From contig CAWCYZ010000004.1 of NCBI GenBank assembly GCA_963799925.1, forward strand, positions 1,355,170 through 1,419,169: a DNA stretch of 64,000 nucleotides. Reading direction: 5' to 3'. Shown piece by piece: positions 6,001 to 64,000 of the stretch (the first letter of the stretch is position 1; the number at the start of each line of letters is the position of its first letter). This stretch comes from an uncultured Acidobacteriota bacterium. Its GTDB lineage: Bacteria; Acidobacteriota; Thermoanaerobaculia; Multivoradales; UBA5704. The position numbers and the translations under genes are program-made. The notes below the pieces were generated by a model that was not told the DNA's origin, ran no database searches, and saw only the letters and a list, made by a program, of their open reading frames with translations.

Positions 6001-9000
6001 CCAGGTCGACGACGGCGAGCCAACCCACGGGACGGGCGGCGACGACGGCGAGGGGCTGGCCGTCGCGCTCGCCGTAGGAGGTCCGCAGGATCTCGTGGCG
6101 CGCCGCGATCGCCGCCAGGCTCGCGGCGAGGGCGGGGACCGAGAGGCGGCCGCGCAGCTCGACCGCGGCGGGCAGGTTGTAGAGCGCGCTCCCCGGCTCC
6201 AGGCGGTCGAGGAACCAGAGCCGCTCCTGGGCGAAGGAGAGCGGCGCCTCGCCGACGCGGCGCTCCCCCCGCACCGGTGGCGCGTCGCCGCCGGCCCCTT
6301 CGACCCCATCGACCCCGTCCCCGGCGCGCGCCGCCCGCTCCACCGCGAGCGCCAGCGCCGCGACGGTCGGCGACTCGAAGAGAGCGCGGAGCGGCAGCTC
6401 GAGGCCGAGCTCGGCGCGCACCCGCGCGAGCGCCCGCGCGGCGAGGAGCGAATGGCCGCCCAGGGCGAAGAAGCTGTCGTGGATGCCCACCGCCGCGATC
6501 CCCAGCACCTCGCCGAAGATGGCGGCGAGGCGCGCCTCGAGCGGCGTCCGCGGCGCGACCGGGGGCGCTCCGTCGCTCCACTCCGGCTCCGGCAGCCGCC
6601 GGCGGTCGAGCTTGCCGTTGGGGGTCCGCGGCAGCTCGGGGAGGAGGACGACGGCGGCGGGCACCAGGTGCTGCGGCAGGCGCAGGGAGAGGTCCCGGCG
6701 GAGCGACTCGGCCGTCGCCGCGGAGCCCGGCTCGCCCCCGGGCGCGAGGACTGCGTAGGCGACGAGGCGCAGCTCGGCAGTACCCGGCGGGCCCGCCGGG
6801 CGCGCCACCACCGCCGCGGCGCCGACGCCGGGGAGGGCTTCGAGCGCCGCCTCGACCTCGCCGGGCTCGACGCGGAAGCCGTGGATCTTCACCTGGTGGT
6901 CGACGCGGCCGAGGAACTCGAGCTCGCCGTCCGGCCGCCAGCGGGCGAGGTCGCCGACGCGATAGAGGCGCCGGCCGGGGGCGGCGGCGAAGGGATCGGG
7001 GAGGAAGCGCTCGGCGGTCAGCTCGGGCCGGCCGAGGTAGCCGCGCGAGACGCTGCGGCCGCCGATCCACACCTCGCCGGCGACGCCGGCGGGCACCGGC
7101 GCGAGGCCCGGGCCGAGGAGGTGCACGCGGGAGCCGGCGATCGGCCGGCCGATGGTGGGCGCCGGCGGCTCGCCGCCGGCGGCGAGCGGCGCCGCCCACC
7201 AGGTCGAGCAGGTGGTGGCCTCCGATGGTCCGTAGAGGTTGACCAGGCGCGTCGCCCGCGTCCGCCGCCGGATCGCCTCGGCGAGGCTCGGAGTCAACGG
7301 CTCGCCGCCGAGGCTCACCGTCCGCACCGAGGCCGGCACCCGGCCGCCACCCACCAGCTCGGCCATCGCCGAGGGGACGGTGTCGACGAGGGTGACGCGA
7401 TCGGCGGCCGCCAGCTCGGGAAGCTCGAGGGCGCTCGCCGCGAGCACCACGGCGCCGCCGCTCGCGAGCGGCACGAAGATCTCGAAGATCGAGAGGTCGA
7501 AGCAGATCGAGGTGGCGGCGAGGACGCCCGCCAGCTCCTCGGCGGAGAAGACGCTCCGCGCCCACTCGACGAAGACGACGGCCGTCGCGTGCTCGATGGC
7601 GACGCCCTTCGGGCGGCCGGTCGAGCCCGAGGTGTAGATGACGTAGGCGAGGTTGCCGGGGAGCGGCCCGTGCTGGGCACCGGCAGCGAGGGTCGGCGGC
7701 GCCGCGGCGGCGGCTTCCGCCTCCTCGATCACGATCACCCGCAGGCCCTCCTCCGGCACCCGGCCGCGGAGCGCCGCCTGGGTGACGAGGACGGTCATGC
7801 CGCTGTCGGCGGCGGTGAAGGACAGGCGGTCGCGCGGATAGGCGGGATCGAGGGGGACGTAGGCGCCGCCCGCCGCGAGCACCGCCAGGAGGGCGACGAT
7901 CATCGCCGGCGTGCGCTCGAGGCAGATCCCGACGCGCACCTCGGGGCCGACCCCCGCGGCGCGGAGGACCGCCGAGAGGCCGGCGACCCGGCGGGCGAGC
8001 TCGCGGTAGGTCAGCTCCTCGCCGGCGGCGACGAGCGCCGTCGCCTCCGGCGTGCGCGCCGCCTGGAGGGCGAACAGCTCGTGCAGGCAGACCGCCTGGG
8101 GCGGCGCCTCGCCCTCGCCGCCGCCCCAGGCGGCGAGCTGCGCCCGCTCGGAGGGCGAGAGGAGGGGCAGCTCCCACACCCGCGCCGCGGGGTCCGCCGC
8201 CATGCCGTCGAGGAGCGCCGCGAAGTGCCCGAGGAGGCGCTCGGCGGTGGCGCCGTCGAAGAGGTCGGCGTTGAAGGTGAGCGCCGCGGCGAGGCCGGCC
8301 GGCTCGCCGCCCGCCGTCTCGCCCGGCAGGAGGCCGCAGGCGAGCGTCAGGTCGAGCTGGGCGCCGCGCGGGGCGAGCGGCAGCGGCGCCAGGCGAAGGC
8401 CGCCCAGATCTAGCTCGAGGCCGCCCAGCTCGAGGTCGAGGCTCCCGGTTCCTCCGGCAGCCCCCGCGGCGCCGAGCGCCAGCGCGGCGAGGCGCTCGCC
8501 GAGCGGCCCGCGGCCGCCCTGGAGCACCAGCATCGCCTGGAAGATCGGCGACCGCGAGGGATCGCGCTCGGCCGCCAGGCGCTCGGCGAGGAGCGGAAAG
8601 GGAAGCTCCTGATGGGCGAAGGCGGCGAGCGCCGTCCGCCGCGTGCGCGCCAGGAGCTCGGCGGCGCTGGGGTCGCCTGAGAGGTCGGCGGCGAGGACCA
8701 CCGGATTGACGAAGTAGCCGACAGCGCCGGCGAGCTCGGCCGTGCCGCGCCCGGAGGTCGGGGTGCCGAAGAGCGGCTCGTCCTGCCCGCTCGTCCGCGC
8801 GAGGAGGGCGCCGAAGCCGGCCGCCAGGGTGACGAAGAGGGTGGCGGACTCGGCGCGGCCGAGCTCGCGCAGGCGGCGGGTGAGATCGGCCGGCAGGCGG
8901 GCCGTCCGCCAGTCGCCGCGGAAGCTCTGCGCCTTGCCGCGTGGGTGGTCGGTGGGGAGCTCGAGCACCTGCGGCTTGTCGGCCAGCGCGGCGCGCCAGA

Positions 9001-11770
9001 AGGCGAGGAGGCGCTGGGTCTCGGCGTCGGTGGAGCGATGCGCCGTGGCGTAGGGGGGCCGCGGCGCCGGCGGCAGCGCGGCTTCGGCGGCTTCGGCGCC
9101 TGTCGGCGACGGCGGCTCTCCCCGCGCCGCGGTACAGCCGGGCGAGCTCGCCGAGGAGCACCTCGACGGACCAGAAGTCGGCGGCGATGTGATGGACGGC
9201 GAGCCACAGCACCGGCTCCCGGCGGCCCCGCGCGACGAGGCCGGCACGGAGGAGCGGCCCGGCGGCGAGGTCGAACGGCCGGTAGGCGCGATCGGCGAGG
9301 CGCCGCGCCAGCTCCTCGTCGCTCCAGGCGGCGCCGTCCTCCTCCAGCCATTCGACGGGCGGTCCGGCGATCGGCCGCGGCGCCGGCTCGCCGGCCGATT
9401 CCGCGAAGACCGTGGAGAGCGCCGGATGGCGCGCCGCGAGAGCGAGGAGCGCGGCATGGAGGGCGTCAACGTCGACGTCGCCCACGACGCGCGCCGCGCC
9501 GGCGAGCACGTAGGCGGCGCTCTCCGGCGCCAGGCGATCGAGGAGCCAGAGCGCGCGCTGGCCGGGCGAGACGGCCCCCGGCGCGCCGTCCTCAGCACCG
9601 GCTCCGGCGGCCGGCGGGTCGTCGGCCAGACGCCGCAGCACCTCGCCGGCGAGGTCGGCCGGCGTGGCGCCCTCGAGCAGCCAGGCCATGGGGAGGGCGA
9701 CGCCGAGCTCCGTCTCGACGACATGGGAGAGCTCGATCGCCTTGAGCGAGTCGAGGCCGCTCGCGGTCAACGGCCGGTCGTCTGCGAGCTGCCCGGAGGG
9801 AAGGCCGAGGATTCGCGCCAGCCGACCGCCGAGCACCGCGGCGAGCGCCGGCCGCCGCGCCTCGACCGGCACCGCGAGGAGCATCTCCCGCGCCGCGGGA
9901 AGGGCGGGCTCGTCCGCTTTCCGCTCGGCCGCCGGCGCCGGCTCGGCAGCTCTCTCCCCCCCGCCGGCCGGCCGGCGAGCTGGGAGGCCAGGCTGCCGTC
10001 GAGATAGGCGGCGCGACAGGCGCGGCGCTGTACCTTGCCGCTCGAGGTCTTGGGGACCGCGCCCTCACGCACCAGCAGGAGGTCGTAGAGCTGCGCCTCG
10101 TGCTCGGCGGCGACGGCGGCGCGCGCCGCGTCGGCGATCTCGCCCAGGTCTTTCGCGTGGCGGTCGACCTCCTGCACGACGACGAGCCGCTCGGCGCCGT
10201 CGAGGTCGGCGGCGAACGCCGCGCCGCAGCCCGGGCGCATCGAGCGATGGCTCGCCTCGACGGTGCGCTCGATGTCCTGCGGGTAGAGGTTCCTGCCGCG
10301 CAGGATGATGAGGTCCTTGAGGCGGCCGGTGACGAAGAGCCCGCCGGCGGCGTCGGCGAAGCCGAGGTCGCCGGTGCGGAGGTACGGCTCGCCGTCCCTG
10401 GTGCCCGCGGCGCCCGCGGCGGCCGGGTCCGCCGTCCGATCCGCGGCCCGATTCGCGGCCCGATTCGCGGCCGACACCAGCCGGCCGCCGAAGTCGCGCG
10501 CCGTCTCCTCGGGGCGCCGCCAGTAGCCGCCGGCGACGCTCGGCCCGCGCACCCAGATCTCGCCCACCTCGCCGGCGCCGAGCGGGCGGCGCGACTCGGG
10601 CTCGACGATCGCCACCTCCTGGCCGAGCCAGGCCGTGCCGCAGCCGACGAGCGTGCGCGCCGCCTCGCCGTCCGCGGCCGCGACGGCGCGCCCCTGCTCG
10701 AGCGGCGCCGCCGCGACGCTCGCGATCGGCGGCCCCGTCGAACCGCGGGGCGGCCCGGCGACGAAGAGGGTCGCTTCGGCCAGGCCGTAGCAGGGGTACC
10801 AGGCGCCGGCGCGGAAGCCCACCGGGCCGAAGCGCCGGGCGAAGCGCTCCAGGGTCTCGGCGCGCACCGGCTCGGCGCCGTTGAAGGCCACCTCCCAGCT
10901 CGCGAGGTCGAGCCGCGAGCGCTCCTCGTCGTCGATGCGGGAGGCGCAGAGCTCGTAGGCGAAGTTCGGGCCGCCCGAGGTCGTCGCCCGGTAGCGGCTG
11001 ATCGCCTGCAGCCAGCGCGCCGGCCGCTGCAGGAAGGCGACGGGCGACATCAGCACCGCCCGCGCGCCCAGGTAGAGGGGCTGCAGGACGCAGCCGATGA
11101 GGCCCATGTCGTGGTAGAGCGGCAGCCAGCCGACGACGACCGAGCGCACCGACTGGCCGAAGGCGCGGCGGATCATCTCCTCGTTGTGGAGGAGGTTGCG
11201 ATGGCTCACCATGACGCCCTTGGGCGCCGCGGTCGAGCCGGAGGTGTACTGCAGGAAGGCGAGGCTCTCGGCGGTGATCGCCGGCTGGCGCCAGGCGTCG
11301 GCCGCCGCCGGATCGAGGGCGTCCGTCGCCACCAGGGTCAGGGCGTCGAAGGCCGCCGCGCCCGGCCCCATCGCCCGCAGCTGGGGGAGGAGCGAGGACT
11401 CGGTGAGGGCGAAGCGCGGCCGGGCGTCGGCGGTGACGGCGAGGAGGCGAGGCAGGGTGCGGGCGGAGCGCGGCGGGTAGGCGGGCACGGCGACGACACC
11501 GGCATAGAGGCAGCCCAGGAAGGCGGCGACGAACTCGAGGCCGGGGGGATAGAGGAGGAGGGCGCGCTCGCCGGCGGCGCCCCGCGCCTGGAGGTGGGCG
11601 GCGATCGTCCGCGCCCGGCGATCGAGGTCGGCGAAGGTGAGCGTCGCCGCCTCCTCGCCCGCCGCGTCGAGGAAGGTGTAGGCCCTCGCCTCCGGGCTCT
11701 CCGCGGCGCGGGCGCGGAGCACCTCGACGAAGGTGGGAAGCGCCATCCGAGAGCTTGAAGAGGGAGTCAT
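1..11770 (-). CDS. FAAL-initiated NRPS, partial at the window start and interrupted by several frameshifts. Domain order FAAL-ACP-C-A-T-C-A-T-C-A(partial); lipopeptide-type loading module.
   Basis: FAAL segment is ORF 9767..11770, aa 1-590 ([47 protein letters not shown]). ACP (SGLDSLKAIEL) and the start of a C domain (HHIAADFWS) form the N-terminal ~300 aa of ORF 2565..9884; the rest of that ORF is off-frame. Hand translation of the reverse strand gives the A3 core LAYVIYTSGSTGRPK at 7607-7651 and 4262-4306, and LAYVIYTSGSTGKPK at 821-865. T-domain cores: FFALGGHSLL at 6449-6490 and FFAAGGHSLL at 3009-3052. C1 motifs: LSFAQERLWFLD at 2765-2806 and 6203-6235. GLIGLFVN at 5345-5371 and QRLLAFWRAAL near 9000. 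C-domain HHIVSDGWS lies in ORF 1159..2568. Frame changes occur near 9960 (C8 run), about 9085 (gcttcggcg duplicated), about 2540 (caggccgctgag duplicated) and about 1230. The true frame runs open to the window edge, so it is not in the ORF track. Confidence 0.85.
4328..4445 (-). repeat. In-frame 33-bp tandem repeat, about 3.3 copies, encoding AELPMPAAPEG repeats in the variable loop just upstream of the A3 core of NRPS module 2
   Basis: cgccctccggcgcggcg(a/g)gcatcggaagctccg occurs three times, at 4328-4360, 4361-4393 and 4394-4426, followed by a diverged partial copy. The equivalent position in module 1 (about 7690-7740) has no repeat. Confidence 0.75.
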
Positions 11771-12136
11771 TCAGCCGCGGCCCGAAGGCCTGTAAGTCTC
11801 GAGAAATGTTCTGTTTAGTAAGGGCAATCGACGTCTCTCGCCTCGCCAAGAGCACAGTGTCCAAAAGGAGTCAAACGTGACAGGGGCGGCCCGGTGGCGG
11901 GGGCGTCGCCCACCCCGGCCACGAGCTGCGAGTCTACGGCTGGACGGCGCGCGAGCGGCCGCTCGTCTGCGTCCCACCGACGGCTCGGGCTACGCCGCGG
12001 GCTCGCGCTTCGGCGGGACAGTGAGGCCGCCGTTCACGCTCAGCGAGCCCGACGGAGCCCCCCGCCTGGGGTCACCGGGGCGTCATGGATGTTGGAGCGA
12101 TGGACAACACTCCCCCGTGTTGTTATCATCTCCAAC

Positions 12137-12418
12137 ATGAAGGCCGAGCCGCTGTTCCGTGAGCGGCAAATCGTCGCCGCAGACGCGTTCGTGGAATTGG
12201 TGGTGTGGCAGGTTCCCAGGCCAGCGCCTGGCAGTGCGCACGGTTTCAAGTATCGGTTGGCTCTCGTGGTGAACGGCGTGTGTGTGCTGCGCTACGACAA
12301 CGAGGCGGGCAAGGGTGATCACAGGCACCTCGGTGGGGAGGAAGCTCCTTACTCTTTCACCACGCCGGCACAACTGCTCGCCGACTTCTGGAACGACGTG
12401 GACCCGTGGAGATCCTGA
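12137..12418 (+). CDS. DUF6516 / TumE-like small protein (putative toxin-antitoxin-like toxin component), 93 aa
   Basis: ATG at 12137 inside ORF 11894..12418. Sequence VVWQVPRPAPGSAHGFKYRLALVVNGVCVLRYDNEAGKGDHRHLGGEEAPYSFTTPAQLLADFWNDV resembles the conserved YDNE-GKGDHRH core of DUF6516/TumE proteins as I recall them. Stop codon lies 2 nt before the next gene. Local GC about 58-60% versus about 72% in the flanks. Confidence 0.5.
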   Translation: MKAEPLFRERQIVAADAFVELVVWQVPRPAPGSAHGFKYRLALVVNGVCVLRYDNEAGKGDHRHLGGEEAPYSFTTPAQLLADFWNDVDPWRS

Positions 12419-12419
12419 T

Positions 12420-12761
12420 ATGCATACCGTGACCCTGGAAGTCTCAACTCGCGAGGAGGCCGATCGCCGTTTCCTGCGCGCCGTCGAGGGCCAACCCCAA
12501 GGGGCGTTCATCAGCTTCGAGACCCCAGCGTTATTGTTCAAGGTGTTGACGCAGAAGCGATGGGAGCTGCTTTCAGCCATGACGGGTGAGGGTCCCATGA
12601 CCTTGCGTGAGGCGGCCCGCCGGGTCGGGCGGGACGTGAAAGCCGTGCACGGCGACGTTCATGCGCTGCTCACCGTCGGAATCCTGCAAAAGACAGCTGC
12701 AGGCCGGATCGTGTTCCCGTTCGATGCCGTGCGCGTCAATTTTGTGCTGCAGGCGGCCTGA
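12420..12761 (+). CDS. Small HTH DNA-binding protein of the HVO_A0114/TumA type (putative partner of the TumE-like gene), 113 aa
   Basis: ATG at 12420, in frame with ORF 12282..12761. Candidate helix-turn-helix segment MTLREAARRVGRDVKAVHGDVHALLTVGIL. Tight coupling to the upstream gene (1-nt spacer) is typical of two-gene toxin-antitoxin-like cassettes. Confidence 0.45.
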   Translation: MHTVTLEVSTREEADRRFLRAVEGQPQGAFISFETPALLFKVLTQKRWELLSAMTGEGPMTLREAARRVGRDVKAVHGDVHALLTVGILQKTAAGRIVFPFDAVRVNFVLQAA

Positions 12762-12846
12762 TCCATGGGGCTCGGGCGGCGCTGGCGCCCCGACCATCTC
12801 TCTGCTGGATGGTGGAGGAAGCGCGAGGACGGCCTGACGAGAGCGG

Positions 12847-13212
12847 TCATCCCGGATCGTTCGGGTTGGGCTTCGGGGCGGCGTCGCCTTCGGGGGGCGG
12901 CAGGGGGATGGCGGCGAGGCGGCAGCCGGCGGCCAGGATCGTGGCCAGGAAGGCCACGGTGATCGCCAGGCTGGTGCCCTGCCAGAGACCGCCGAACCAC
13001 CGGCGGAGCTCGTAGGCGAAGACGTTCGCCTGGCCGCCGTACATCTCCAGCTGCCGGAGGGACTGTTTGCTGTCCTCCATGTTGCCCAGGGGATCTTCGG
13101 GCGGCGGCGCGGCGGTCCGGTAGATCACCAGGGCGGCGAGGAGACCGGCGATCAGGATCGCGTGGCTCAGGATGCGGAGCGTCCTGGTGCGCGCGGCTGG
13201 TGTGACGCTCAT
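12847..13212 (-). CDS. Small membrane protein, 121 aa, two predicted transmembrane helices; hypothetical
   Basis: ORF 12847..13560 trimmed to Met MSVTPAARTRTL at 13212. The longer N-terminal extension would overlap the start of the LanB-like gene. Hydrophobic stretches ILIAGLLAALVIY and LAITVAFLATILAAG. Transcribed divergently from the first LanB-like gene. Confidence 0.35.
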   Translation of the reverse strand: MSVTPAARTRTLRILSHAILIAGLLAALVIYRTAAPPPEDPLGNMEDSKQSLRQLEMYGGQANVFAYELRRWFGGLWQGTSLAITVAFLATILAAGCRLAAIPLPPPEGDAAPKPNPNDPG

Positions 13213-13457
13213 GCTTGGGTTCCCCCTCGCCGCGTCGCCGGTCGAGAGATCTGCCCGGCGTCCGGCATGCGGGGGGATTCTATGGGGCTCGCAGATCCAG
13301 CGGACCGGGTCGGTCGATTTCCCGTGGGACGGCTCGGCCCGGCCCCGGGCCGCGGCAGCGCTTACGCTCGGCGCGAGAGGCTTACCGGGGGTCGGGCAAG
13401 GCTCATGCTCCGCGCGATAGGCTGACCTCTCCGCGAGGACGGTCAACTTGACGAGGC

Positions 13458-16157
13458 ATGACGACCATGAAGCGCAGCCGAGAACTGCCGGATCCCTCCG
13501 ACTCGCACCTGGAATCTGCGGGCGACCACGCTGCCGGCCGGGGCGATCCCGGTCGCTCACGGCCGGACGCCCCGCTCCCCGGCCATCTCCTGCCGCTGGC
13601 GGGCGAGCCCACCGGCCAGTGGGCGCTCTGGCGCACCTTCGCCGTGCGCGGCGCCGGCTTCCCGGCGGCCGATGTCCTGCGATTGGCGGATGCCGCCTGC
13701 GCGGCGGCGGCCGATCGGCTGAGCGCGGCGGAGGCGGCGGCGGAAAGGCTGCGCCAGACCGCGCTCGAGGTGCTGCGCGGCGAGCTGCCGAGCGTGGGCA
13801 AGAGCCGGCTCGATCCCCGCGTCAAGGCGATCCGGCGCCTCGAGCGGCGGCAGCCCGCCGCGGCCGCGGGGCTCGGCCGGTCCGCGGCGGCGGCGCTCGC
13901 GGCGTGGGAGGAGGCGGCGGCGCGCGCCGCCGCCGAGACGACAGTCTATGAGGCCGCCTTCGCGGCGGCTGAGGACCGCCTCGAACAGGAGCTCCGCGGC
14001 GTCGCCACGAGCCCGCGCTTCCGCGAGGCGGTCGTCTGGCAGAACCGCCATGCCGTCGAGACGGGGCTCGAGCCCTTCCTGCGCCGGCGAGAGGGGGCGG
14101 CCGGCGCCTCGGCCCGTCGCCGCGGGCAGGTCCAGATGATCGCCTCCTATCTCCAGCGCTACTGCACCAAGAACGACTCGATCGGATTCTTCGGTCCGGT
14201 CGGTTGGGGCCGGCTGGGAGAGGGCCGCGAGGCGATCGCCGTCCAGCCCGGCGAGGACCTGCTCGCCTCGCGGCAGGTCTACTTCGAGGAATGGGCGATC
14301 GACGCCATCGCCCAACGGCTCGCGGCGGACGTGGCGATGCGCCCCTGGCTCGCCCCCCGGCGCTCGCCGTACCTGCGGCGGGAGGGCGATGGTTACCTCA
14401 CGCCGAACGGCGCCAGGATCGAGCTCGGTCCGCTCTCCGGCGCCCTCATCGCCGCCTGCGACGGCACGCGCTCGGCACGCGTGCTGCTGCGGGAGCTGGG
14501 TCCGGCCCTCACCCCCGACCAGGAGGCGACCCTGTGGGGGCTGCTCGCCGACTTCCACGCCAAGGGCCTGATCCGCTGGTCGTTCCAGATCCCGCTGTCG
14601 ATGACCGCCGAGCGCACGCTGCGGGACCTGCTCCTGGAGGTCGAGGAGGAGCCGCTGCGCGAGGGCGCCCTCGCGCTCCTCGACGAGGTCGTCCGCGCGC
14701 GCGACGAGGTTGCCCGTGCGCGCGGCGACGCCGAGGCGCTCGGGCGCGCCCTCGCCGAGCTCGAGGCGACCTTCACGCGCGCTACCGGCCGGCTCGCGAC
14801 GCGCGGCGACGGCCAGCTCTATGCGGGACGCACGCTGATCCACGAGGACTGCCGGCGCGACCTCGACGTCGAGCTCGGAGCGCCCTTCCTGGCCGAGATC
14901 GCTCCGGCCCTCGGCCTCGTCCTCGATAGCGCCCGCTGGATCACCCAGCTCGTCGCGCGGAGCCACCGGGAGCGTTTCGAGGCGACCTACGCGCAGCTGA
15001 GCCGCGACCGAGGCACGCCGCAGGTCGACCTGCTGAGCTTCGCCCGCGCCGCCGTACCGCTCCTGCTCAACCGGGAGACCCGCCAGATGCTCGAGCGCGA
15101 GATGCAGGACCGGTGGGAGAGGGTCTTGCAGATCCCGGAGGGGGCGCGGCGGATCGTGCGCAAGAGCGCCGAGCTCGGCCCGCGGGTGGCCGAGGAGTTC
15201 GCCGCGTCCAGCGCCGGATGGGTCAAGGCGCGCTACCACAGCCCCGACCTCCTCATCGCCGCTCCCAGCGTCGAGGCGATCCGGCGGGGCGACTACGAGG
15301 TCGTCCTGGGAGAGCTGCACGTCGCCATCAACACCCTCGATCGGGCGGTCCTCTTCTCGCAGCACCCCGAGCCCGAACGGCTCCGCGCCGCCATCGAGTC
15401 CGATCTGCCGGAACCGTGCGTGATTCCGGTGCTGCCCAAGTGGGGCCAGGAGGAGGCGGTGGCGGGGCTCGGCTTGCCGATCTGGGCGGCCAACGGCCGG
15501 CTGGACCTCGCTCTGCGCTCGCCGAAGGACTTCTACCTCGACCTCTCGCTCGACCCTCCCGGCTTCCCGCCCTCGCAGGTCCTGCCGGTCGGCGAGCTCG
15601 TCGTCGAGGCGGCCGACGGCGGCCTGGTCGTCGCGACCCGCGAGGGCGGCGCCCGCTTCGACGTCATCGACTTCTTCCAATTCGTCCTGATGGCGCAGGT
15701 CATCAGGGCCTTCCGCGTGTCGCCCCCCGGCAGCCACACGCCGCGGGTCACCATCGACCGGCTGGTGGTCAGCCGCGAGAGCTGGAGCTTCGCTACCGGC
15801 GGGCTCGGCTGCGCTCAGGAGCCGACCGCGCCGCGGCGCTTCGCCGCGGTCCGGCGCTGGGCGGCAGAGCACGAGCTGCCGCGTTTCCTCTTCGCCAAGC
15901 CGCAGAACGAGGGGAAGCCGTTCTACGTCGATCTCGAGAGCCCGGTCCTCGTCGAGGTCCTCGCCAAGGCCGTCCGCGGCGCGGCGAAGGCGGACCCGCG
16001 AACGCCGATCCACCTCTCCGAGATGTTGCCCGGCCACGATCAGCTCTGGCTGCCCGATTCCCAAGGCAACCTCTACACCGCCGAGCTGCGGATGGTGGCA
16101 CTCGATCTGGCGCGTCCAGGGGAGCCGGGAGTGCGGACGACGAAGTCGGAGGGGTGA
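13458..16157 (+). CDS. LanB-family dehydratase N-terminal (glutamylation) domain protein lacking the C-terminal elimination domain; PEARL (peptide aminoacyl-tRNA ligase) / split-LanB-like, 899 aa
   Basis: Intact 899-aa ORF. LanB-like signatures: N-terminal WALWRTFAVRGAGFPAADVL (compare the FxxRTPLLP region of LanB) and YLQRYCTKNDSIGFFGPVGWGRL (compare LanB RYxxRxxxRxTPFGLFAGV). The size matches Lant_dehydr_N-only proteins such as TglB-type PEARLs and thiopeptide split dehydratases, with no SpaB_C-like C-terminal part. A paralog lies 2.2 kb downstream. Confidence 0.6.
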   Translation: MTTMKRSRELPDPSDSHLESAGDHAAGRGDPGRSRPDAPLPGHLLPLAGEPTGQWALWRTFAVRGAGFPAADVLRLADAACAAAADRLSAAEAAAERLRQTALEVLRGELPSVGKSRLDPRVKAIRRLERRQPAAAAGLGRSAAAALAAWEEAAARAAAETTVYEAAFAAAEDRLEQELRGVATSPRFREAVVWQNRHAVETGLEPFLRRREGAAGASARRRGQVQMIASYLQRYCTKNDSIGFFGPVGWGRLGEGREAIAVQPGEDLLASRQVYFEEWAIDAIAQRLAADVAMRPWLAPRRSPYLRREGDGYLTPNGARIELGPLSGALIAACDGTRSARVLLRELGPALTPDQEATLWGLLADFHAKGLIRWSFQIPLSMTAERTLRDLLLEVEEEPLREGALALLDEVVRARDEVARARGDAEALGRALAELEATFTRATGRLATRGDGQLYAGRTLIHEDCRRDLDVELGAPFLAEIAPALGLVLDSARWITQLVARSHRERFEATYAQLSRDRGTPQVDLLSFARAAVPLLLNRETRQMLEREMQDRWERVLQIPEGARRIVRKSAELGPRVAEEFAASSAGWVKARYHSPDLLIAAPSVEAIRRGDYEVVLGELHVAINTLDRAVLFSQHPEPERLRAAIESDLPEPCVIPVLPKWGQEEAVAGLGLPIWAANGRLDLALRSPKDFYLDLSLDPPGFPPSQVLPVGELVVEAADGGLVVATREGGARFDVIDFFQFVLMAQVIRAFRVSPPGSHTPRVTIDRLVVSRESWSFATGGLGCAQEPTAPRRFAAVRRWAAEHELPRFLFAKPQNEGKPFYVDLESPVLVEVLAKAVRGAAKADPRTPIHLSEMLPGHDQLWLPDSQGNLYTAELRMVALDLARPGEPGVRTTKSEG

Positions 16158-16216
16158 GATCGCGGCGGGTCGACGCGGGTGCGGCCACCTGGGAACCAGG
16201 CTTCAGAGCCGCTCCA

Positions 16217-16981
16217 CTAGCGCCTCCGCCACGGCAGCGAGTCCGCCACCACCCAGGCGGCGCCCATCACGGTGAGATTGAGGACATTCTCGCTCAGGAC
16301 CGTATGGCTGGAGGGAGCGGCCAGGAGCATCGGCCCGTGCACCAGCAGGGTGAAGGACGCGAACATGGCGGTCAGCAGGATCGTGGCGAGGCGGGCTTGC
16401 ACGCCGGTCAGGATCGCAATGCCCGCCGCGATGAGGCCAACCCCGGTCGCATAAGCCCAGAACTCTTGCGAAGGCGGCAGCCATTTGGGGACCAGAGGGG
16501 CGGTGAGGTTCAGGTAGAAAAAATGCGCTCCGCCGAACAGCAGCGCGCAGAGCCCGAAGGCCAGTTGGCCCAGGCGCGTGAGGCGTGCGGCCAGGGCCGC
16601 ATCGATCTTGGCGCTGGCGGCGTAGACGATCAGGCCGCCCGCCGCGATCGCGAGCTGCTCGGCGGCGCCGCTGTAGGCGCCGAACTCGGCGTAGTGGGCG
16701 AGCACCACGCGGCCGTACATCAGGATGACGACGATGAGCGCGTAGTAAGCGGTGAGCGCCGCGGCGCCCCAGGCCGTGGTCCGACGCCACTCGACGGCCG
16801 CGCCCGCGACGAGCAGGAACGCAGCGGCGGCATAGGCCAGGGCGGTGCGGGCGGGAAAGTCCTTGGGCACCGGCTGCCCGAGGTCGAAGTTCCCCCACGC
16901 CAGGCAGACCATGCCCAACGCCATCACGCCCAGGCCGTACACGCGCCAGCCGAAGGCCATCGGCGTCTTTTCCGCGGTCAT
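16217..16981 (-). CDS. Polytopic integral membrane protein, about 254 aa, 7-8 predicted TM helices; unknown family
   Basis: ORF 16217..17077 trimmed to MTAEKTPMAFGW at 16981, with a GGTGA 8 nt upstream. Hydrophobic segments throughout (GLGVMALGMVCLAW, LAYAAAAFLLVAGAAV, YYALIVVILMYG, LAFGLCALLFGGAHFFYL, GVGLIAAGIAILTG, LTAMFASFTLLVHG). Convergent with the first LanB-like gene. Confidence 0.55.
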   Translation of the reverse strand: MTAEKTPMAFGWRVYGLGVMALGMVCLAWGNFDLGQPVPKDFPARTALAYAAAAFLLVAGAAVEWRRTTAWGAAALTAYYALIVVILMYGRVVLAHYAEFGAYSGAAEQLAIAAGGLIVYAASAKIDAALAARLTRLGQLAFGLCALLFGGAHFFYLNLTAPLVPKWLPPSQEFWAYATGVGLIAAGIAILTGVQARLATILLTAMFASFTLLVHGPMLLAAPSSHTVLSENVLNLTVMGAAWVVADSLPWRRR

Positions 16982-17129
16982 GAATTTTTCACCCGCGACT
17001 ATACAACTAGCCGGCCAGCTCTGACGTCCCCGGCCGGTGGGCCGCACCATGACCTTGATCGCCTGGCGCTCGTTCATCGCCCGGTAGCCGTCGGGAACCT
17101 CGTCGAGGCGGATGGCCCGGGAGAGCTCG

Positions 17130-17640
17130 GCGCGCGGCGTGGTAGCTCGGCGCGCGGCGCGGTAGCCCAGCGCATCGAGCGGAAACCCGGCGCGCGGTGC
17201 GGTAGCCCAGCGCGCGGCCGGGAAGGCGAGCGCATCGAGCGGAAGCCCAGCGCGTGAACGGGAGAACGAGCGCGCGGCCGGGAAGCCCGGCGCGCGAACG
17301 GGAAGCCGGGCGCGTGAACGGGAAGCCGGGCGCGCGAACGGGAGAGCCGAGCGCGCGGCCGGGAAACCCGGCGCGCGACGGAGCGAGCGGAAGAGTGCGG
17401 GTCTTCCGGGAAGAGACGGCGCCTAAGAGGAAAAAATGAGTTTTTCCCGGAAGAGGGAAGGGCGCAACCGGAAGGCGTCAACCCTTCCCGGAAGAGCTCG
17501 CGAGCGGCGGGAAAACCCCGGCTCTTCCCGGATAACCACGGCTCTTCCCGGAAAAGGGCGGGCGGGAAGGGGAAGAGCCGGGCCCTTCCCGGAAGAGGGC
17601 GCGCGCCGCGGGAAGACGCGAGCCCTTCCCGCCGGCTCAG
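17130..17640. repeat. Non-coding degenerate tandem-repeat array made of two repeat families
   Basis: Family A, 17130-17400: about 20-bp units such as gcgcgcgaacgggaagccgg and gcgcgcggcgcggtagcccag, repeated about 8 times. Family B, 17400-17640: 7 copies of CTTCCCGGAAGAG-like units spaced about 25-35 bp apart, with core palindrome TTCC-C-GGAA. An AT-rich hairpin ggaaaaaa-tgag-tttttcc sits at about 17449-17470. The only ORFs across this region are Arg-rich repeat artefacts. Confidence 0.7.
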
Positions 17641-18017
17641 TTCACCGGCGGCCCGTCGGCCTTCGCCGCGGCGGCGGCCGAGCGGCGGCGGCGGGGGTGG
17701 CGCCGCCGCGGCGCGACGCCGAACGCGACCAACCGGTCGCTCTCGAGCCCCAGGGAGCCGCGCAGGAGCGCCGCGAGCTGGTTGCGCAGGGCGCGGCCCT
17801 GGGCGAGCGCGGTCCTCCGCGCGTGGTGGGTCTCCCGCAGCCTCGCCTCGTGCTCGAGGCTCTCCTCCTCGAGCGCGAGGGCGCGCGCGACGGGCGCCGA
17901 GAGGGCGGCGTGGAGCTCCCGCAGGTGGGGCATCTCCGCGAGCACCGCCGCCATGTTGTCCACCGTCACCCGCCAGGCGGCGATGCTCTCCTTGTAGGTC
18001 AACGGCCTGACCGGCAC
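17637..18017 (-). CDS. Hypothetical small protein, 126 aa, predicted coiled coil with an Arg-rich C-terminus
   Basis: ORF 17637..18017. High GC3 codon bias and a non-repetitive sequence (MPVRPLTYKESIAAWRVTVDNMAAVLAEMPHLRELHAALSAP...) argue that it is coding. No recognisable family. Confidence 0.35.
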   Translation of the reverse strand: MPVRPLTYKESIAAWRVTVDNMAAVLAEMPHLRELHAALSAPVARALALEEESLEHEARLRETHHARRTALAQGRALRNQLAALLRGSLGLESDRLVAFGVAPRRRHPRRRRSAAAAAKADGPPVN

Positions 18018-18412
18018 GGCGCCTCCCTCCTCCTCGCTCGCGGTACAGGATCGACCGCGGGATCGTCGCCGAAGAGGCCGTGCGTGTCAACCGGAGTTGG
18101 CGCTGAAAAATCCTCCGGCCGCGGGTGTCTTAAGCTGGGGTTCGCTCTCGCTCACCCCGGCCTACGCGCCTACGGCCGCCCTCGCCCGTAACCCCTCCTC
18201 GCCGCCGCCTGCCAGGCGCTCCGCGGCCGGGCGCTGCCGCTCGACGCCAGCCCTCACGCCGGGGCCTGGCTCGCGCTCTGCGGCGGCTTTCGGATGTCAC
18301 GTCTGGACTCGGTTGCCCACTATCCATAGGTAGATACAGCGGATGACGGCCTCTCGGCACAGGAGAGGCCGGATCAGGGGCGCGCCGCCCGCCTTCACCC
18401 TCCGGACGAGGC

Positions 18413-20984
18413 ATGGTCATCATGAATCGAAGCGCAGATCATCTCGTGCCGCTGCCCGGCGAGACCATCAGCCCATGGGCGCTCTGGCGCACCTTCGCCG
18501 TGCGCGGCGCCGGCTTTCCGGCGGCCGACGTCCTGCCGATGGCGGATGCCGTCTGCGCGGCGGCGGCCGACCGGCTGGGCGCGGTGGAGGAGGAGGCGGA
18601 GAGCCTGCGCCAGGCCGCCCTCGAGGCGTTGCGCGGCGAGCTGGCGAGCGCCGACAAGAGCCGGCTCGATCCCCTCGTCAAGGCGATCCAGCGCCTCAAG
18701 CGGCGGCAGCTCGCCTCTACGGCCGGGCTGGCCGGGCTGGCCCAGCCGACCGGCGGCGGCGCTCGATTCCTGGGCGGCGGCGGCCCGGCGCGCCGACGCC
18801 GAAAAGGCCGCCTATGAGGCCGTCTTCGCGGCGGCCGAGGACCGCCTCGAGCCGGCGCTCCGCGGCGCCGCCGAGGACCCGCGCTTCCGCGAGGCGGTCG
18901 TCTGGCAGAACCGCCACGCCATGGAGACGGGGATCGAGCCCTTCCTGCGCCGGCGGGAGGGGGCGGCTGGCCGCTCGGCCCGTGATCGCGGTCACGCCCA
19001 GATGGTCGCCTCCTATCTCCAGCGTTACTGCACCAAGAACGACACGATCGGGTTCTTCGGTCCGGTCGGCTGGGGCCGGCTGGGAGAGGGCGACCAGCCG
19101 ATCGCCGTCCAGCCCGGGGAGACTCTGCTCGCCGCGCGGCAGATCTACTTCGAGGGCTGGGCGATCGACGCCATCGCCCAACGGCTCGCCGAGGAGGATG
19201 CGATGCGCCCCTGGCTCGCCCCCCGGCGCTCGCCCTACCTGCGGCGGGAAGGCCAGGGTTACGTCACGCCGAACGGCGCGCAGATCCAGCTCGGCCCGCT
19301 CTCGAGCGCCCTTTTGGCCGCTTGCGACGGCACCCGCCCCGCCCTCGTGCTGCTGCGCGAGCTGAGCCCGGACCTCGCCCCCGACCAGGAGGAGGTCCTC
19401 CTGGGGATGCTCGCGGGCTTCCATGACAAGGGCATGATCCGCTGGTCGTTTCAGATCCCGCTGTCGATGACCCCCGAGCGCACGCTGCGGGACCTGCTCC
19501 TCGCGATCGAGGAGGAACCGCTTCGCGAGCGCGCCCTGGCGCTCCTCGACGAGATGGTCCGCGCGGCCGACGAGGTGGGCCGCGCCCGCGGTGATGCCGA
19601 GGCGCTCCGGCGCGCTCTCGGCGCGCTCGAGGCGACCTTCACGCGCGCCACCGGCCGGCTGGCGACGCAGGCCGACGGCAAGCTCTATGTGGGACGCACG
19701 CTGGTCCACGAGGACTGCCGGCGCGACCTCGACCTCGAGCTCGGAGCGCCCTTCCTGACCGCGATCGCTCCGCCCCTCTCTCTCGTCCTCGCCAGCGCCC
19801 GGTGGTTCACCCAGCGCATCGCCCGAGGCTACCGCGAGTGTTTCGCGGCGACCTACACGAAGCTGAGCGGCGAGAGGGGCTCGCGGCAGATCGACCTCTT
19901 GAGCTTCGCCCAAACCGCGTTGCCGCGCCTGGTCAACCGGGAAACCCGGCAGATGCTCCAGGGCGAGCTGCAGGCCCGGTGGGACAGGGTCCTCGCGATC
20001 CCGCCGGGGGAACGGCGGATCGTCCGCCGCAGCGCGGAGCTGCGAGCGCTGGTGGCCGAGGAGTTCGCGGCGCCCGGCCCCGGCTGGGTCAAGGCGCGCT
20101 ACCACAGCCCCGACCTCCTCATCGCCGCTCCCAGCGTCGAGGCGATCCGGCAGGGCGACTACGAGGTCGTCCTGGGAGAGCTGCACGTCGCCATCAACAC
20201 CCTCGATCGTGCGCTCTTCTTCGCCCAGCACCCCGAGCCCGAACGGCTCCGCGCCGCCATCGAGGCCGATCTGCCGGAACCCTGCTTGATTCCGCTGCTG
20301 CCCAAGGCGTGGAGCCCGGAGGAGGTGGTGGAGGGGCTCGGTCTGCTGGTATGGGCGATCAACGGCCGGATGGACCTCGCCCTGCGCTCGCCGAAGGACT
20401 TCTACCTCGACCTCTCGCTCGACCCTCCCGGCTTCCCGCCCGCACAGGTCCTGGCGATCGGCGAGCTGGTGGTCGAGGAGGCCGAGGGCGGCCTCGTCGT
20501 GGGGACCCGCGAGGGCCGTGTCCGCCTGGACGTCCTCGACTTCTTCCAATTCGTCCTCATGGCGCAGGTCATCAGCACGTTCCGCCTGCTCCCCTCCGGG
20601 AGCCACGCGCCGCGGGTCACCATCGATCGCCTGGTGGTCAGCCGCGAGAGCTGGGTCCTCAAGGCCGGCGAGCTCGACTTCGCCCGGCAGCCGACCGCGC
20701 CGGGGCGTTTCGCCGCGGCCCGGCGCTGGGCGGCAGGGCTCGGGTTGCCGCGCTTCCTCTTCGCCAAGCCGCAGAACGAGGGGAAGCCGTTCTACGTCGA
20801 TCTCGAGAGCCCCATCCTCGTCGAGATCCTCGCCAAGGCCATCCGTAGCGCGGCGAAGGCGGATGGGCACGATCTGGTCCATCTCTCCGAGATGCTGCCC
20901 GCCCATGGCCAGCTCTGGCTGCCCGATTCCCAAGGCAACCGCTACACCGCCGAGCTGCGGATGGTGGCCCTCGATCTCTCGTGA
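18413..20984 (+). CDS. Second LanB-N-terminal-domain-only (PEARL/split-LanB-like) paralog, interrupted by a 1-nt frameshift near 18745
   Basis: ORF 18413..18817 carries the N-terminus (MVIMNRSADHLVPLPGETISPWALWRTFAVRGAGFPAADVL). The gene continues in ORF 18546..20984 from about 18760 (AAYEAVFAAAEDRLEP...). Roughly 75-80% amino-acid identity with the 13458..16157 protein along the whole length, including YLQRYCTKNDTIGFFGPVGWGRL. The frameshift lies in the ggccgggctggccgggctgg repeat. Confidence 0.6.
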
Positions 20985-21224
20985 GCACGAGCTCGCGGGC
21001 CGCCTTCCCCTGCACAGCCGGCGCGAGTTTCCGCGAGCTCTGAGCGGAGCTCGCGCCCCCCTGGCCGCAGCGATGAAACCGTGGGCCCTTAGCCCAGTCT
21101 CTGCGCATACATTCCTTGTCACGATTCGTCGATGCCCGAGCACTCTGGGTAGGAGGAGATAACCGGAGATAGAGACGACAAGGCTCGTTCCAGGTGGCCC
21201 GATCCCTCCCCGACGACCGCTCGC

Positions 21225-40413
<19,189 letters not shown>

Positions 40414-40577
40414 ATGGCCGGCCGGCGCGGCCGAGCTCCCCGTCTCACCCTTGCGGCCGCGGAGGACGCCTGGACGTGAACCCGCTGCCGATCGCTACCG
40501 ACTCGCCTCACCGGGCGATGCCCGCCCGGCGTTCGTGGATTGAGTGCAACCTTCCCGCTGAAGAATGGAGATGAGAG

Positions 40578-42296
40578 ATGTCTGACGAGAGAGACCAGAA
40601 ACGAGGCAGACTGGCCCGTGTCGCCGTGCTGCTGATCGCCGCCTGTGGGACGATGGCGGCCGGCCGGCTGGCCGCCGACGGCGGTCCCCGCGTCTCGCCG
40701 GAGGTGCGCGTCAACGCCCCGCAGCAGCTCTTCCCCAACGACAACCCGACCCGCAGCACGACGACGATCGCGGCGAGCGCCGACGGCCAGAACCTGCTCG
40801 TCGGTTTCGAGGACTTCCAGGGAGTCTGCGGGCCGCCGTCGAATTTTGCCTGCCCGCCGCCGAACCCGCCGGGGGTCGTCGGCTTCTCGTTCTCGACCGA
40901 TGGCGGCAGGAGCTGGACGGATGGCGGCGCCCCCTTCCCGACCGGTGCCACCATCACCCAGGGTCACCCGTGGGCCGATCGGTTGTCGGCGCGGGGAGAC
41001 GATGAAGATGGAGAGGAGGGCCACGGAGACAGCGAGCACGGCCACGGAGATAGTGAGCACGGCCGCGACCGCGACACCTATTTCCTCAGCACCGTGCTGG
41101 AGAGCGCGACCGCGCCCAGAGCCGTGGCACTGGGCATCTATCGGGGTCACTTCGGCGCCGGCACGTTCGCCTTCGACGATGTGAGGACCCTCGCTCCGGC
41201 CAACCCCTTCGACCAGTTCACGCGCGCGGCGCTCGCCGCCGCCAAGGACGGACGCCAGGACGCCTATGTCGCGCTGATCAACATCGACGAGATCTGCGAG
41301 GTGCCCTTCGCCGGGTTCGGCCAGGTCGAGGTCTTCAGCACGCACGACGGCGGCAACACCTGGACGGGTCCGGTGATCGTCAGCCCCGAGACCGCCACGA
41401 TCCTCGATCCCAACGATCCCGATTGCGGCAATGCGGGATTCCTGCAGATCGCGCCGGCGGTGACGATCGGGCCGCGCGGCGAGGTCTACGTGGTGTGGCA
41501 GTACGGCCCCGAGTTCCTCCTCGACGGGACCAACACGGCGACCGATCGGATCGCCTTCTCGCGCAGCACCGACGGCGGCCAGACCTTCTCGGCGCCGGCC
41601 TTCATCGCCGGGCTCAACGACATGCGGGCCAACCCGCCGGTCGGCCTGGGGCAGAACCGCATGAACGACCAGCCGCGCATCGCGGTGGCGGCCAGCGGGC
41701 CCCACCGCGGCCGCATCTATGTCACCATCTTCCCGGCGGTCGCGCCGGTAGCGGTGCCCGCCACCGTGCAGTCGACCGTGTCGTCCCAGGCGTACATCCT
41801 CTTCTCCGACGACCAGGGCCGCACCTGGAGCGCGCCCCAGGCCCTCGCGCCGCCGGTGCCTCCGACCGGGGTCAAGCGCATCTGGCCGACCGTCAGCGTG
41901 CGGCCGAACGGCGCGGTCGACGTGGTCTACCTCGAGAGCCAGGAGGTCGCGACCGGCACGCCGTGCAGCGTGCCCATCGGCACGGTGGCCAAGCGCACCG
42001 GTCCGGCGAGCTCTCTGGTCGACACCTTCTGGGTGCAGTCGCGCGACGGCGGGTCTTCCTTCGGGCCGCCCGTCCGGGTGTCGTCGCAGACCAGCAACTG
42101 GTGTACCGCTCCCTATAAGTTCGCCAGCGCTCTGCTCGCCAACTTCGGGTTCTACATCGGAACGGCCTCGGTCGGCGACCGTACGTTGGCGGTCTGGCCC
42201 GACGACGGCAGCGGCGGCCCCATCGACGTGCTGTTCGCCACCATCCAGGGGGAAGAGAAGAGCGGCCGGCACGACGACGATTCGCACCGTCGCTGA
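40578..42296 (+). CDS. Secreted BNR/Asp-box repeat protein (sialidase / glycoside-hydrolase-like fold), 572 aa, with an acidic His-rich insert
   Basis: Intact ORF. N-terminal signal-like LARVAVLLIAACGTMAAG. At least five Asp-box motifs (SxDxGxTW/F): STDGGRSW, STHDGGNTW, SRSTDGGQTF, SDDQGRTWS, SRDGGSSF. Insert DDEDGEEGHGDSEHGHGDSEHGRDRD is encoded by a 21-bp tandem duplication at about 41019-41060. Confidence 0.6.
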   Translation: MSDERDQKRGRLARVAVLLIAACGTMAAGRLAADGGPRVSPEVRVNAPQQLFPNDNPTRSTTTIAASADGQNLLVGFEDFQGVCGPPSNFACPPPNPPGVVGFSFSTDGGRSWTDGGAPFPTGATITQGHPWADRLSARGDDEDGEEGHGDSEHGHGDSEHGRDRDTYFLSTVLESATAPRAVALGIYRGHFGAGTFAFDDVRTLAPANPFDQFTRAALAAAKDGRQDAYVALINIDEICEVPFAGFGQVEVFSTHDGGNTWTGPVIVSPETATILDPNDPDCGNAGFLQIAPAVTIGPRGEVYVVWQYGPEFLLDGTNTATDRIAFSRSTDGGQTFSAPAFIAGLNDMRANPPVGLGQNRMNDQPRIAVAASGPHRGRIYVTIFPAVAPVAVPATVQSTVSSQAYILFSDDQGRTWSAPQALAPPVPPTGVKRIWPTVSVRPNGAVDVVYLESQEVATGTPCSVPIGTVAKRTGPASSLVDTFWVQSRDGGSSFGPPVRVSSQTSNWCTAPYKFASALLANFGFYIGTASVGDRTLAVWPDDGSGGPIDVLFATIQGEEKSGRHDDDSHRR

Positions 42297-42312
42297 GTAG
42301 GTCCGCGGCCGA

Positions 42313-42370
42313 TCCGGCCGGCGCCGCCGCGCTGCAGCTCGCGCGGCGGCGCCGGCCGGGCGGCTTTTCA
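42313..42370 (+). terminator. Rho-independent-type terminator candidate downstream of the BNR gene
   Basis: Perfect 18-19 bp GC stem, ccggccggcgccgccgcg(c) at 42314-42331 paired with cgcggcggcgccggccgg at 42342-42359, about 8-nt loop tgcagctc, followed by cggcTTTTc at 42362-42368. Lies 17 nt after the stop at 42296. Confidence 0.55.
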
Positions 42371-42429
42371 CCGCGTCTTACGGCGAGCCCGCAGAGGGGA
42401 TCTCATCGCCCTATGATGGAGAACGACTC

Positions 42430-44880: not shown

Positions 44881-45041
44881 GACGTTGAGCGGACCTGACA
44901 ATTCTCGGCGCGGCTTTGAGCCGGCGGCGCACTGGATGCTTTGATGATCACCGCGCCCAAGGTGTGTCCGGCGGGGGCTCCTCGGGGGGGAGCCGCCGGC
45001 GAGCCGGTCGTCGTGCCGACGTCCACCGCGAAGGGGATGGG

Positions 45042-47403: not shown

Positions 47404-47442
47404 GCGCCGAGAGCGTAATACAAAACCCCATCGAAGCGAGCC

Positions 47443-64000
<16,558 letters not shown>

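Follow-up and report, generated by a model that had tools for sequence, protein, structure and literature searches.

Why do two genes of the LanB (lantibiotic dehydratase) superfamily stand in tandem amid genes for nonribosomal peptide synthetases (NRPSs)? The question is raised by a 64-kb stretch of contig CAWCYZ010000004.1, called the window throughout (G+C about 75%), in which codon-position G+C delineated two plus-strand genes within 13458-20984, here named copy 1 and copy 2. Their motifs place both proteins in the branch of peptide aminoacyl-tRNA ligases (PEARLs), not in the dehydratase branch, of the superfamily. Judging from sequence, we consider it probable that the two are NRPS-tailoring PEARLs resembling SnaE, which act on a non-ribosomal rather than a ribosomal peptide. 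An earlier note on this DNA had taken the combination of such genes with NRPS genes to be undescribed, which did not hold. Yu and van der Donk (ACS Cent Sci 2024) reported about 2,000 NRPS or polyketide synthase (PKS) clusters that encode "lantibiotic dehydratases", mostly stand-alone, some fused to a thiolation (T) or thioesterase (TE) domain, without a precursor peptide and mostly in Actinobacteria (PMC11212132). In the threopeptin cluster of Stackebrandtia nassauensis, a ureido-forming condensation (C) domain with the signature EHHxxHDG leaves a carboxylate to which SnaE attaches Thr, a role of SnaE demonstrated by heterologous expression and deletion (PMC11212132).

Domain content, diagnostic motifs and fold

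The earlier note had described two paralogous proteins of about 850-900 aa consisting of a LanB N domain only. Copy 1 had a sole Pfam match, to Lant_dehydr_N (PF04738, E = 1.3e-32). The open reading frame (ORF) 18546-20984, which carries all but the N-terminus of copy 2, matched the same family (E = 5.4e-35) and otherwise only Terminase_5, below threshold (E = 0.11; 12.9 bits, the cut-off being 20.3). Neither sequence matched PF14028 (SpaB_C) in the Pfam scan, and an NCBIfam scan of the two gave zero matches. The described domain content was thus borne out, and the size held as it stood for copy 1 (899 aa) and, after repair of a frameshift, for copy 2 (856 aa).

We then compared the diagnostic blocks of the superfamily. 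In the alignment of Fig. S12 of PMC11212132, PEARLs and SnaE have QRxxxKN(D/E)xxxF(F/Y) and a C-terminal WL...E(L/I)R, and dehydratases have RxxxR/KxTPFGLF (PMC11212132). Copies 1 and 2 read SYLQRYCTKND(S/T)IGFF and LWLPDSQGN(L/R)YTAELR, the copy 1 motifs being ASYLQRYCTKNDSIGFF and LWLPDSQGNLYTAELR, and the TPFGLF block of the dehydratases was absent from both copies, with QRYCTKND(S/T)IGFF in its place. BLOSUM62 scores of copy 1 were 112 and 71 against two published SnaE fragments, 58-81 and 28-49 against those of TglB, BhaB and AmmB, and 18-25 and 14-26 against those of the dehydratases NisB, MibB and TbtB. Y231, Q233, R234, K238, N239, D240, E876 and R878 were invariant in an 18-sequence family alignment with identities down to 41%, and E876 and R878, which belong to the ELR motif, occur in both copies. 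Mutations at Tyr205, Arg208 and Glu813/Arg815 (BhaB7 numbering) impair TglB or BhaB7 (PMC11962472); Tyr205, Arg208 and Lys212 lie in the helix that binds the tRNA 3'-CCA and 5'-phosphate. These sites correspond to invariant residues of the family, the pairing of Lys212 being taken from our own alignment. Glu801/Arg803 of TglB are the equivalents of Glu813/Arg815 of BhaB7, and the phosphorylation residues also include an Asp; the invariant D597 and D649 are candidate counterparts of BhaB7 Asp558. With these tRNA and ATP residues of PEARLs present and the TPFGLF block absent, amino-acid addition is favoured over glutamylation of Ser/Thr, two activities that had previously been put side by side for this pair. 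The database name "lantibiotic dehydratase" is misleading for both copies.

An AlphaFold2 model of copy 1, built with 18 family sequences as input, reached a pLDDT of 83.6 and a pTM of 0.83. In Foldseek, this model matched TbtB (PDB 6EC7) over its full length (E = 5e-23; query-normalised TM score 0.61, target-normalised 0.68), and GodF likewise over full length, together with the N-terminal parts of MibB, MadB and NisB (E = 1e-15 to 1e-20). There was a separate match to the winged helix of a recognition element (RRE) for peptides synthesised by ribosomes and modified post-translationally (RiPPs) (8t19, probability 0.99), and the family invariants C334, G336 and L363 lie inside this span (about residues 299-375). 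A sequence search of the PDB returned a weak match only, of the C-terminal ~85 residues to TbtB. The combination of full-length, N-terminal and RRE matches indicated that copies 1 and 2 are glutamylation-type domains with an internal RRE and without an elimination domain. Motifs in both copies and the TbtB/GodF-like fold of the copy 1 model are in line with the PEARL-type architecture first proposed for them. Since the RRE is dispensable in PEARLs, those that work on carrier peptides included (PMC11962472), its retention here tells little about the substrate.

Gene contexts in the family and in a close relative

All window ORFs with coding-like codon bias were scanned against Pfam, and these and the ORF scans revealed no LanC, elimination domain, YcaO or credible precursor within the 64 kb. 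PF14028 and LanC were missing from the 25 commonest families into which 136 neighbour proteins of related loci fell, no azole or pyridine synthase and no LanA-type precursor was found in the window or in those 25 families, and across 80+ loci no small ORF was conserved inside 1.5 kb from the gene. The lack of LanC, elimination domain and recognisable precursor, and with it the non-RiPP context noticed at the outset, was thereby upheld for the window.

A word-indexed search gave at least 811 family matches, mostly from Acidobacteriota and Chloroflexota. At least 563 loci were confirmed in one-genome-per-species contigs, where Myxococcota, Actinomycetota, Cyanobacteria and Proteobacteria were also represented, and 1,935 representatives (50% identity) matched the family profile at E <= 1e-30. 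We surveyed the neighbourhoods of 81 loci with flanks of up to 10 kb per side, counting a match to NRPS or fatty acyl-AMP ligase (FAAL) at E < 1e-10. Such a match was found in a flank of 58 loci, often 0.1-3 kb away and on the same strand, so homologues co-occur with NRPS genes elsewhere too, a check that the earlier note had proposed. The gene directly after the PEARL gene was an initiating FAAL (L048, L051, L071) or a loading module of adenylation (A) and T domains (L018, L047, L034) in six of nine loci checked, and an M28 peptidase gene intervenes in L082 before a FAAL-NRPS. Tandem PEARL copies are common (L010, L023, L039, L045, L048 and, with three copies, L035). Recurrent neighbours included MacB and other ATP-binding cassette (ABC) exporters, major facilitator superfamily transporters, MbtH, type II thioesterase, phosphopantetheinyl transferase, TauD, a CmlA-like hydroxylase, M28 peptidase, SbnA-like PALP, SbnB-like ornithine cyclodeaminase (OCD) and ornithine transcarbamylase (OTCase). 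Within the closest clade (57-72% identity), the NRPS linkage is weaker, yet present, at distances of 2.4 kb in L082, 7 kb in L086 and 8 kb in L084, where an inserted restriction-modification system intervenes.

In some actinomycetes, the domain is part of the synthetase itself. C-A-T-Lant_dehydr_N fusions of 1,900-2,000 aa occur in P0231, P0234 and L061 (6728-12532), and probably also in L057, L073 (Salinispora pacifica CNR114) and L080; P0231 and P0234 matched the family alignment at E about 1e-270. The fused PEARL-like domain occupies the end of the module, the usual position of a thioesterase. The fusions thus join the domain physically with an assembly line's final carrier domain, and they agree with the T or TE fusions mentioned in PMC11212132.

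The six-module NRPS of the window starts 240 nt downstream of copy 2 on the same strand and ends with a T domain and a short tail, without a thioesterase. Its start comprises about 60 low-complexity residues and then a C domain reduced to its C-terminal half (profile 194-454) and lacking HHxxxDG, which matches the truncated C domain reported earlier for one of the NRPSs. The same truncated start is found in the relative L088 (window 21225-21420; L088 12815-13000), showing that the truncation is genuine and not an assembly artefact. The remaining C-domain motifs of this NRPS, at 24493, 27779, 31016, 34364 and 37618, are none of them EHHxxHDG. Across the window, whose NRPS genes run off both ends, the ureido signature was found in 0 of 13 catalytic C-domain motifs; the middle NRPS opens with a fourteenth, truncated C domain in which there is no catalytic motif. 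A sna-like ureido mechanism was rejected for the window, as EHHxxHDG is absent from its C domains, though a ureido domain might lie farther away, past the window ends. Among 80 related loci, EHHxxHDG stands beside the gene, within the flanks, in only three (L046, L047, L054). There, a sna-like A-T-C(urea) order adjoins the gene, so that sna-type contexts belong inside the family.

Locus L088 shares 96% DNA identity with window positions 12830-17045 and 18194-30950. It encodes a counterpart of copy 1 (P0121, 899 aa, at least 90% identical), an intact copy 2 (P0122, 853 aa) and the six-module NRPS as a single 6415-aa ORF with its start at the same place, so the block of first PEARL gene, membrane gene, second PEARL gene and NRPS is kept. 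Left of about 12830 the window is wholly different, and the right-hand NRPS alone is syntenic. The pair does lie between two FAAL/NRPS lines in the window, as the earlier note had it, but the left line was rejected as a conserved partner for want of synteny in L088. Nor did the small elements named there as possible accessory parts fare better. The 126-/149-aa ORF was rejected as a precursor (no Pfam match, no homologue in 81 loci, absent from L088), the reading frame of the peptide at 21073-21162 is not kept in L088, and the repeat array at 17124-17631 is absent from it; these parts are unconserved elsewhere. Between its copies, L088 has instead a 96-aa Cys-rich ORF and a CRISPR array. The ORF (8189-8479, plus strand) has a signal peptide, a Cys-rich C-terminus (12 Cys) and no Pfam match, and no counterpart was found in the window or the other loci. 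The array (8990-9557) has eight identical 37-nt repeats, GTCGGAATTGCCCTGATCAGTACGGAGGGATTGCGAC, with spacers of 36-42 nt; the repeat does not occur in the window, and there are no cas genes within the 22 kb of L088.

Copy 2 is split in the assembly. By tblastn, ORF 18413-18817 is in frame with its N-terminus, including the WALWRTFAVRGAGFP motif, and ORF 18546-20984 with the remainder, the first ~65 residues of the latter being out of frame. Deletion of one base near 18744 gives an 856-aa protein of the usual family length that is 77% identical to copy 1. Relative to L088, the window carries a 10-bp insertion at 18743, and the 90%-identity cluster that holds the truncated public copy 2 product also contains the intact P0122 from another assembly. 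In total, about 11 apparent frameshifts were counted in 64 kb (~1150, ~2580, ~9100, 18743, 23085, 27596, ~35550, ~47970, ~48400, ~50600 and ~55200). They fall within FAAL, NRPS and PEARL genes, and single Pfam domains are divided between frames: the break at ~9100 divides the first C domain of the left NRPS, the second FAAL is in three pieces within ~1.8 kb, and a further break lies in a C domain near 50600. Those at 23085, 27596 and ~35550 affect the six-module NRPS. The first two are single-base insertions relative to L088 at non-homopolymer sites, at precisely the points where the frame shifts in an A domain and in the NRPS region after it, and three of the ~11 frameshifts in all are insertions relative to intact L088. 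Outside the indels there were no stop codons, and every catalytic motif was retained. So many breaks without stop codons and with motifs retained suggest long-read consensus errors, and the intact copy 2 of L088, taken with the like frameshifts across the NRPS and FAAL genes, makes an assembly error likely. The frame breaks are therefore probably consensus errors of an error-prone long-read assembly.

Two further groups of relatives have distinctive neighbours. In many loci from Pyrinomonadaceae and other Acidobacteriota (L019, L030, L012, L020 and L051 among them), the PEARL gene stands amid genes for SbnA-like PALP, SbnB-like OCD, OTCase-like and TauD proteins, with the PALP gene and the OCD gene as its immediate neighbours on either side in L019 and L030. 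These enzyme types serve 2,3-diaminopropionate and carbamoylated or hydroxylated building blocks, which may hint at the substrate. In the myxobacterial loci L050, L060, L067 and L076 (Sorangium, Myxococcaceae, Kofleriaceae), the PEARL-like gene adjoins genes for an HlyD-like protein and a protein of ~840 aa. By eye, the latter looks like an M50-type membrane peptidase, and both neighbours seem, likewise by eye, to carry PqqD/RRE-like N-terminal segments. L060 and L076 also have a second, divergent LanB-N gene of 1,000-1,050 aa on the opposite strand. No NRPS was found within 10 kb in these four loci, a different and possibly RiPP-like context.

Possible reaction and rival explanations

We infer from characterised PEARLs that each enzyme would use ATP to phosphorylate a free carboxylate on its substrate. 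The acyl phosphate would then be attacked by an aminoacyl-tRNA through its alpha-amine, and the tRNA would be hydrolysed off, leaving the substrate one amino acid longer. The most likely substrate would be the product of the adjacent TE-less six-module NRPS, to which the two paralogues would most likely add two residues or on which they would act at two sites. As no ureido-forming C domain was found in the window, the carboxylate would not be the ureido-derived one of SnaE. A TE-less NRPS, together with related domains placed right after a terminal T domain, makes the peptide C-terminus the best candidate, with the enzymes working on or just after the last T domain; an acidic side chain would be the main alternative. 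More tentatively, one could imagine that PEARLs of this clade do without ureido chain reversal and take, in trans, the place that the fused domain has in C-A-T-PEARL proteins, at the final T domain of a TE-less NRPS or just after it, where they would extend and perhaps release the peptide C-terminally with amino acids borne by tRNA, the two paralogues adding two residues in turn. We hold this wider scheme to be rather doubtful. If true, tRNA-dependent C-terminal extension or off-loading would be a general termination route of NRPSs, widespread in Acidobacteriota, Chloroflexota and Myxococcota.

Several points weigh against NRPS tailoring by the pair. The comparison with SnaE covered two published fragments, and dependence on ATP and tRNA is predicted from homology. 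With EHHxxHDG absent from the window, the substrate logic of SnaE, the only proven one, is inapplicable. The close relatives L001 (70% identity), L003 and L087 have no NRPS within 10 kb, and no common alternative context was found for such NRPS-less relatives across L001-L004 and L087. The toxin-antitoxin pair, the gene remnant and the repeats in and around the PEARL pair mark a rearrangement-prone region. Finally, copy 2, frameshifted in the assembly, could be a real pseudogene, and dN/dS between the copies is ~0.6, a rough value at a third-position G+C (GC3) of 92%.

Three other explanations were considered. The locus might be decaying or inactive, with copy 2 and the NRPS genes as true pseudogenes and the pair without current function. 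Such decay could account for the density of frameshifts, including the 10-bp insertion in copy 2 and the non-homopolymer insertions at 23085 and 27596, as well as for the ADH-like (alcohol dehydrogenase-like) remnant and repeat arrays between the copies. It appears unlikely, however, because L088 has an intact copy 1, copy 2 and 6415-aa NRPS at 96% DNA identity, because stop codons are lacking outside the indels and the catalytic motifs are all retained, and because three frameshifts within one FAAL gene of ~1.8 kb resemble long-read consensus errors more than mutation. We likewise give little credence to the view that these are canonical PEARLs which build an amino-acid-derived small molecule at the C-terminus of an unrecognised ribosomal carrier peptide encoded elsewhere, the NRPS adjacency being coincidental. 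In 80+ loci the gene is not flanked by any conserved small ORF, and neither the 21073-21162 peptide nor the 149-aa ORF is kept in L088. The NRPS linkage in 58 of 81 loci, the C-A-T-PEARL fusions and the closeness of SnaE among the published fragments also speak against a carrier peptide, whereas the three close relatives without NRPS within 10 kb, the non-syntenic left flank and the mobile or defence-type inserts in the region would agree with it. So would the multiple PEARL paralogues, which are typical of carrier-peptide pathways such as those of AmmB1-4 and BhaB (PMC12945691), and the retained RRE-like winged helix with the invariants C334, G336 and L363, although even PEARLs that act on carrier peptides can do without the RRE (PMC11962472).

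It is very improbable that the pair are split-LanB enzymes that glutamylate Ser/Thr with Glu-tRNA to give dehydroalanine or dehydrobutyrine in the NRPS product or a RiPP, with an unrecognised elimination partner. The shared Pfam family and the fold of the stand-alone glutamylation domains TbtB and GodF are what this explanation has in its favour. It is opposed by QRYCTKND in place of RxxxR/KxTPFGLF, by the invariance of the PEARL-specific Arg of ExR, by the lack of PF14028 in the window and among the 25 commonest families of the 136 neighbour proteins, and by the absence of LanC, YcaO and a precursor. As NRPS-tailoring PEARLs, copies 1 and 2 would represent a recently recognised second route to amide bonds in non-ribosomal peptides, in which SnaE is the only NRPS-cluster PEARL linked to a product, by gene deletion only. 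The clade to which their locus belongs is large, with hosts that are largely uncultured, and the ureido-forming domain by which the role of SnaE is explained was missing from most contexts examined. With two paralogues, a TE-less six-module NRPS and an intact copy in a close relative, the locus offers a compact test case.

Other features and comparison with known systems

The features of the window are collected below.

Table 1. Positions of genes and repeats in the 64-kb window (ACP, acyl carrier protein; SDR, short-chain dehydrogenase/reductase)
Feature	Position	Strand	Remarks
NRPS beginning ACP-C(starter)	~9884-2	-	
FAAL	9767-11770	-	
Toxin-antitoxin-like pair TumE / HVO_A0114	11894-12761	+	Pfam E 3.6e-15 (TumE toxin), 2.3e-28 (HVO_A0114)
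Unknown ORF	12847-13560	-	
PEARL-like gene copy 1	13458..16157	+	899 aa; glutamylation-type LanB fold with RRE-like winged helix inside (~residues 299-375)
DoxX-like membrane protein	16217-16987	-	~256 aa, between copies; DoxX E 8e-4, below curated cut-off
ADH-like gene remnant	~17030-17120	-	C-terminal piece of zinc alcohol-dehydrogenase-like gene, ...IRLDEVPDGYRAMNERQAIKVMVRP
Tandem repeat array	17124-17631	.	Intergenic
Unknown 149-aa ORF	17637-18086	-	Includes 126-aa ORF 17637-18017; no Pfam match
PEARL-like gene copy 2	18413..20984	+	Split by frameshift near 18743; repaired product 856 aa
Six-module NRPS	21225-40413	+	Truncated C, A-T, (C-A-T)x5; Pfam on four overlapping ORFs
BNR-repeat protein	40575-42296	+	
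MacB/FtsX-type ABC permease	42301-44880	+	Pfam MacB_PCD 2.6e-38, FtsX 1.3e-28
Flavin amine oxidase	44889-46568	+	
SDR	46633-47772	-	
Second FAAL-ACP-C... NRPS	47443 onward	+	Continues past window end

The MacB/FtsX-type permease is the likely exporter of the cluster product, judging by its family, which adjoins the LanB-N gene in 18 related loci. The DoxX-like protein has a 259-aa orthologue in L088 and zero matches in the other 81 loci. The TumE/HVO_A0114 pair lies between the left FAAL and copy 1, at the edge of the stretch that is not syntenic with L088. Upstream of the DoxX-like gene, the ADH-like remnant and repeat-derived sequence form an in-frame fusion, which points to an earlier rearrangement. 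In the repeat array, ~13 copies of a 20-bp tandem repeat make up the first part (17124-17378), followed by five copies of the near-palindrome CTCTTCCCGGAAGAG at ~40-bp spacing (17403, 17443, 17484, 17544 and 17585); with up to two mismatches, the near-palindrome had 10 matches against 2.6 expected. The only prediction of ARAGORN, an 86-nt tRNA-Gly(CCC) at 62903-62988 (minus strand), lies inside NRPS coding sequence and was set aside as probably spurious in such G+C-rich DNA.

Compared with known members of the superfamily, the window proteins share the fold of the N-terminal glutamylation domain with NisB, MibB and MadB, which come with a PF14028 domain, LanC and a LanA precursor, none of them present at the window locus. 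The best structural matches, TbtB (6EC7) and GodF (9JHQ), align over full length with TM scores of 0.64-0.68 (target-normalised) at 16-19% identity. They glutamylate Ser/Thr with Glu-tRNA, always with a separate elimination protein, and their diagnostic block is of the RxxxKxSPYSTF type, unlike that of the window proteins.

The carrier-peptide PEARLs TglB, BhaB1/5/7 and AmmB1-4 share with the pair the fold family, the tRNA-CCA helix YxQRxxxKN(D/E) and the ATP/carboxylate motif ExR, and their clusters likewise contain several paralogues, which differ in the residue that they add. However, they extend ribosomal scaffolds of 40-60 residues encoded next to them, for which no conserved gene exists at the loci of the window family, and their similarity to the window proteins in the diagnostic blocks is lower than that of SnaE. 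In the C-A-T-Lant_dehydr_N termination modules, the fused domain falls within the same family profile, whereas the window enzymes are free-standing and duplicated.

SnaE provides the closest published fragments (42-45% identity in the helix block and 50% in the C-terminal block, two fragments compared). Like copies 1 and 2, it is a stand-alone protein (~850 aa) with Lant_dehydr_N only and the same PEARL motifs, and it belongs to an NRPS cluster without precursor peptide, LanC or elimination domain. SnaE works with an EHHxxHDG C domain, which the window does not have, and its host is actinobacterial, whereas that of the window is apparently acidobacterial. The window differs further in its two paralogues, in the FAAL-primed NRPS lines nearby and in the TE-less six-module NRPS. 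The pair is thus a new, acidobacterial-type example of a class named in 2024 and still almost uncharacterised, to which it adds no new principle.

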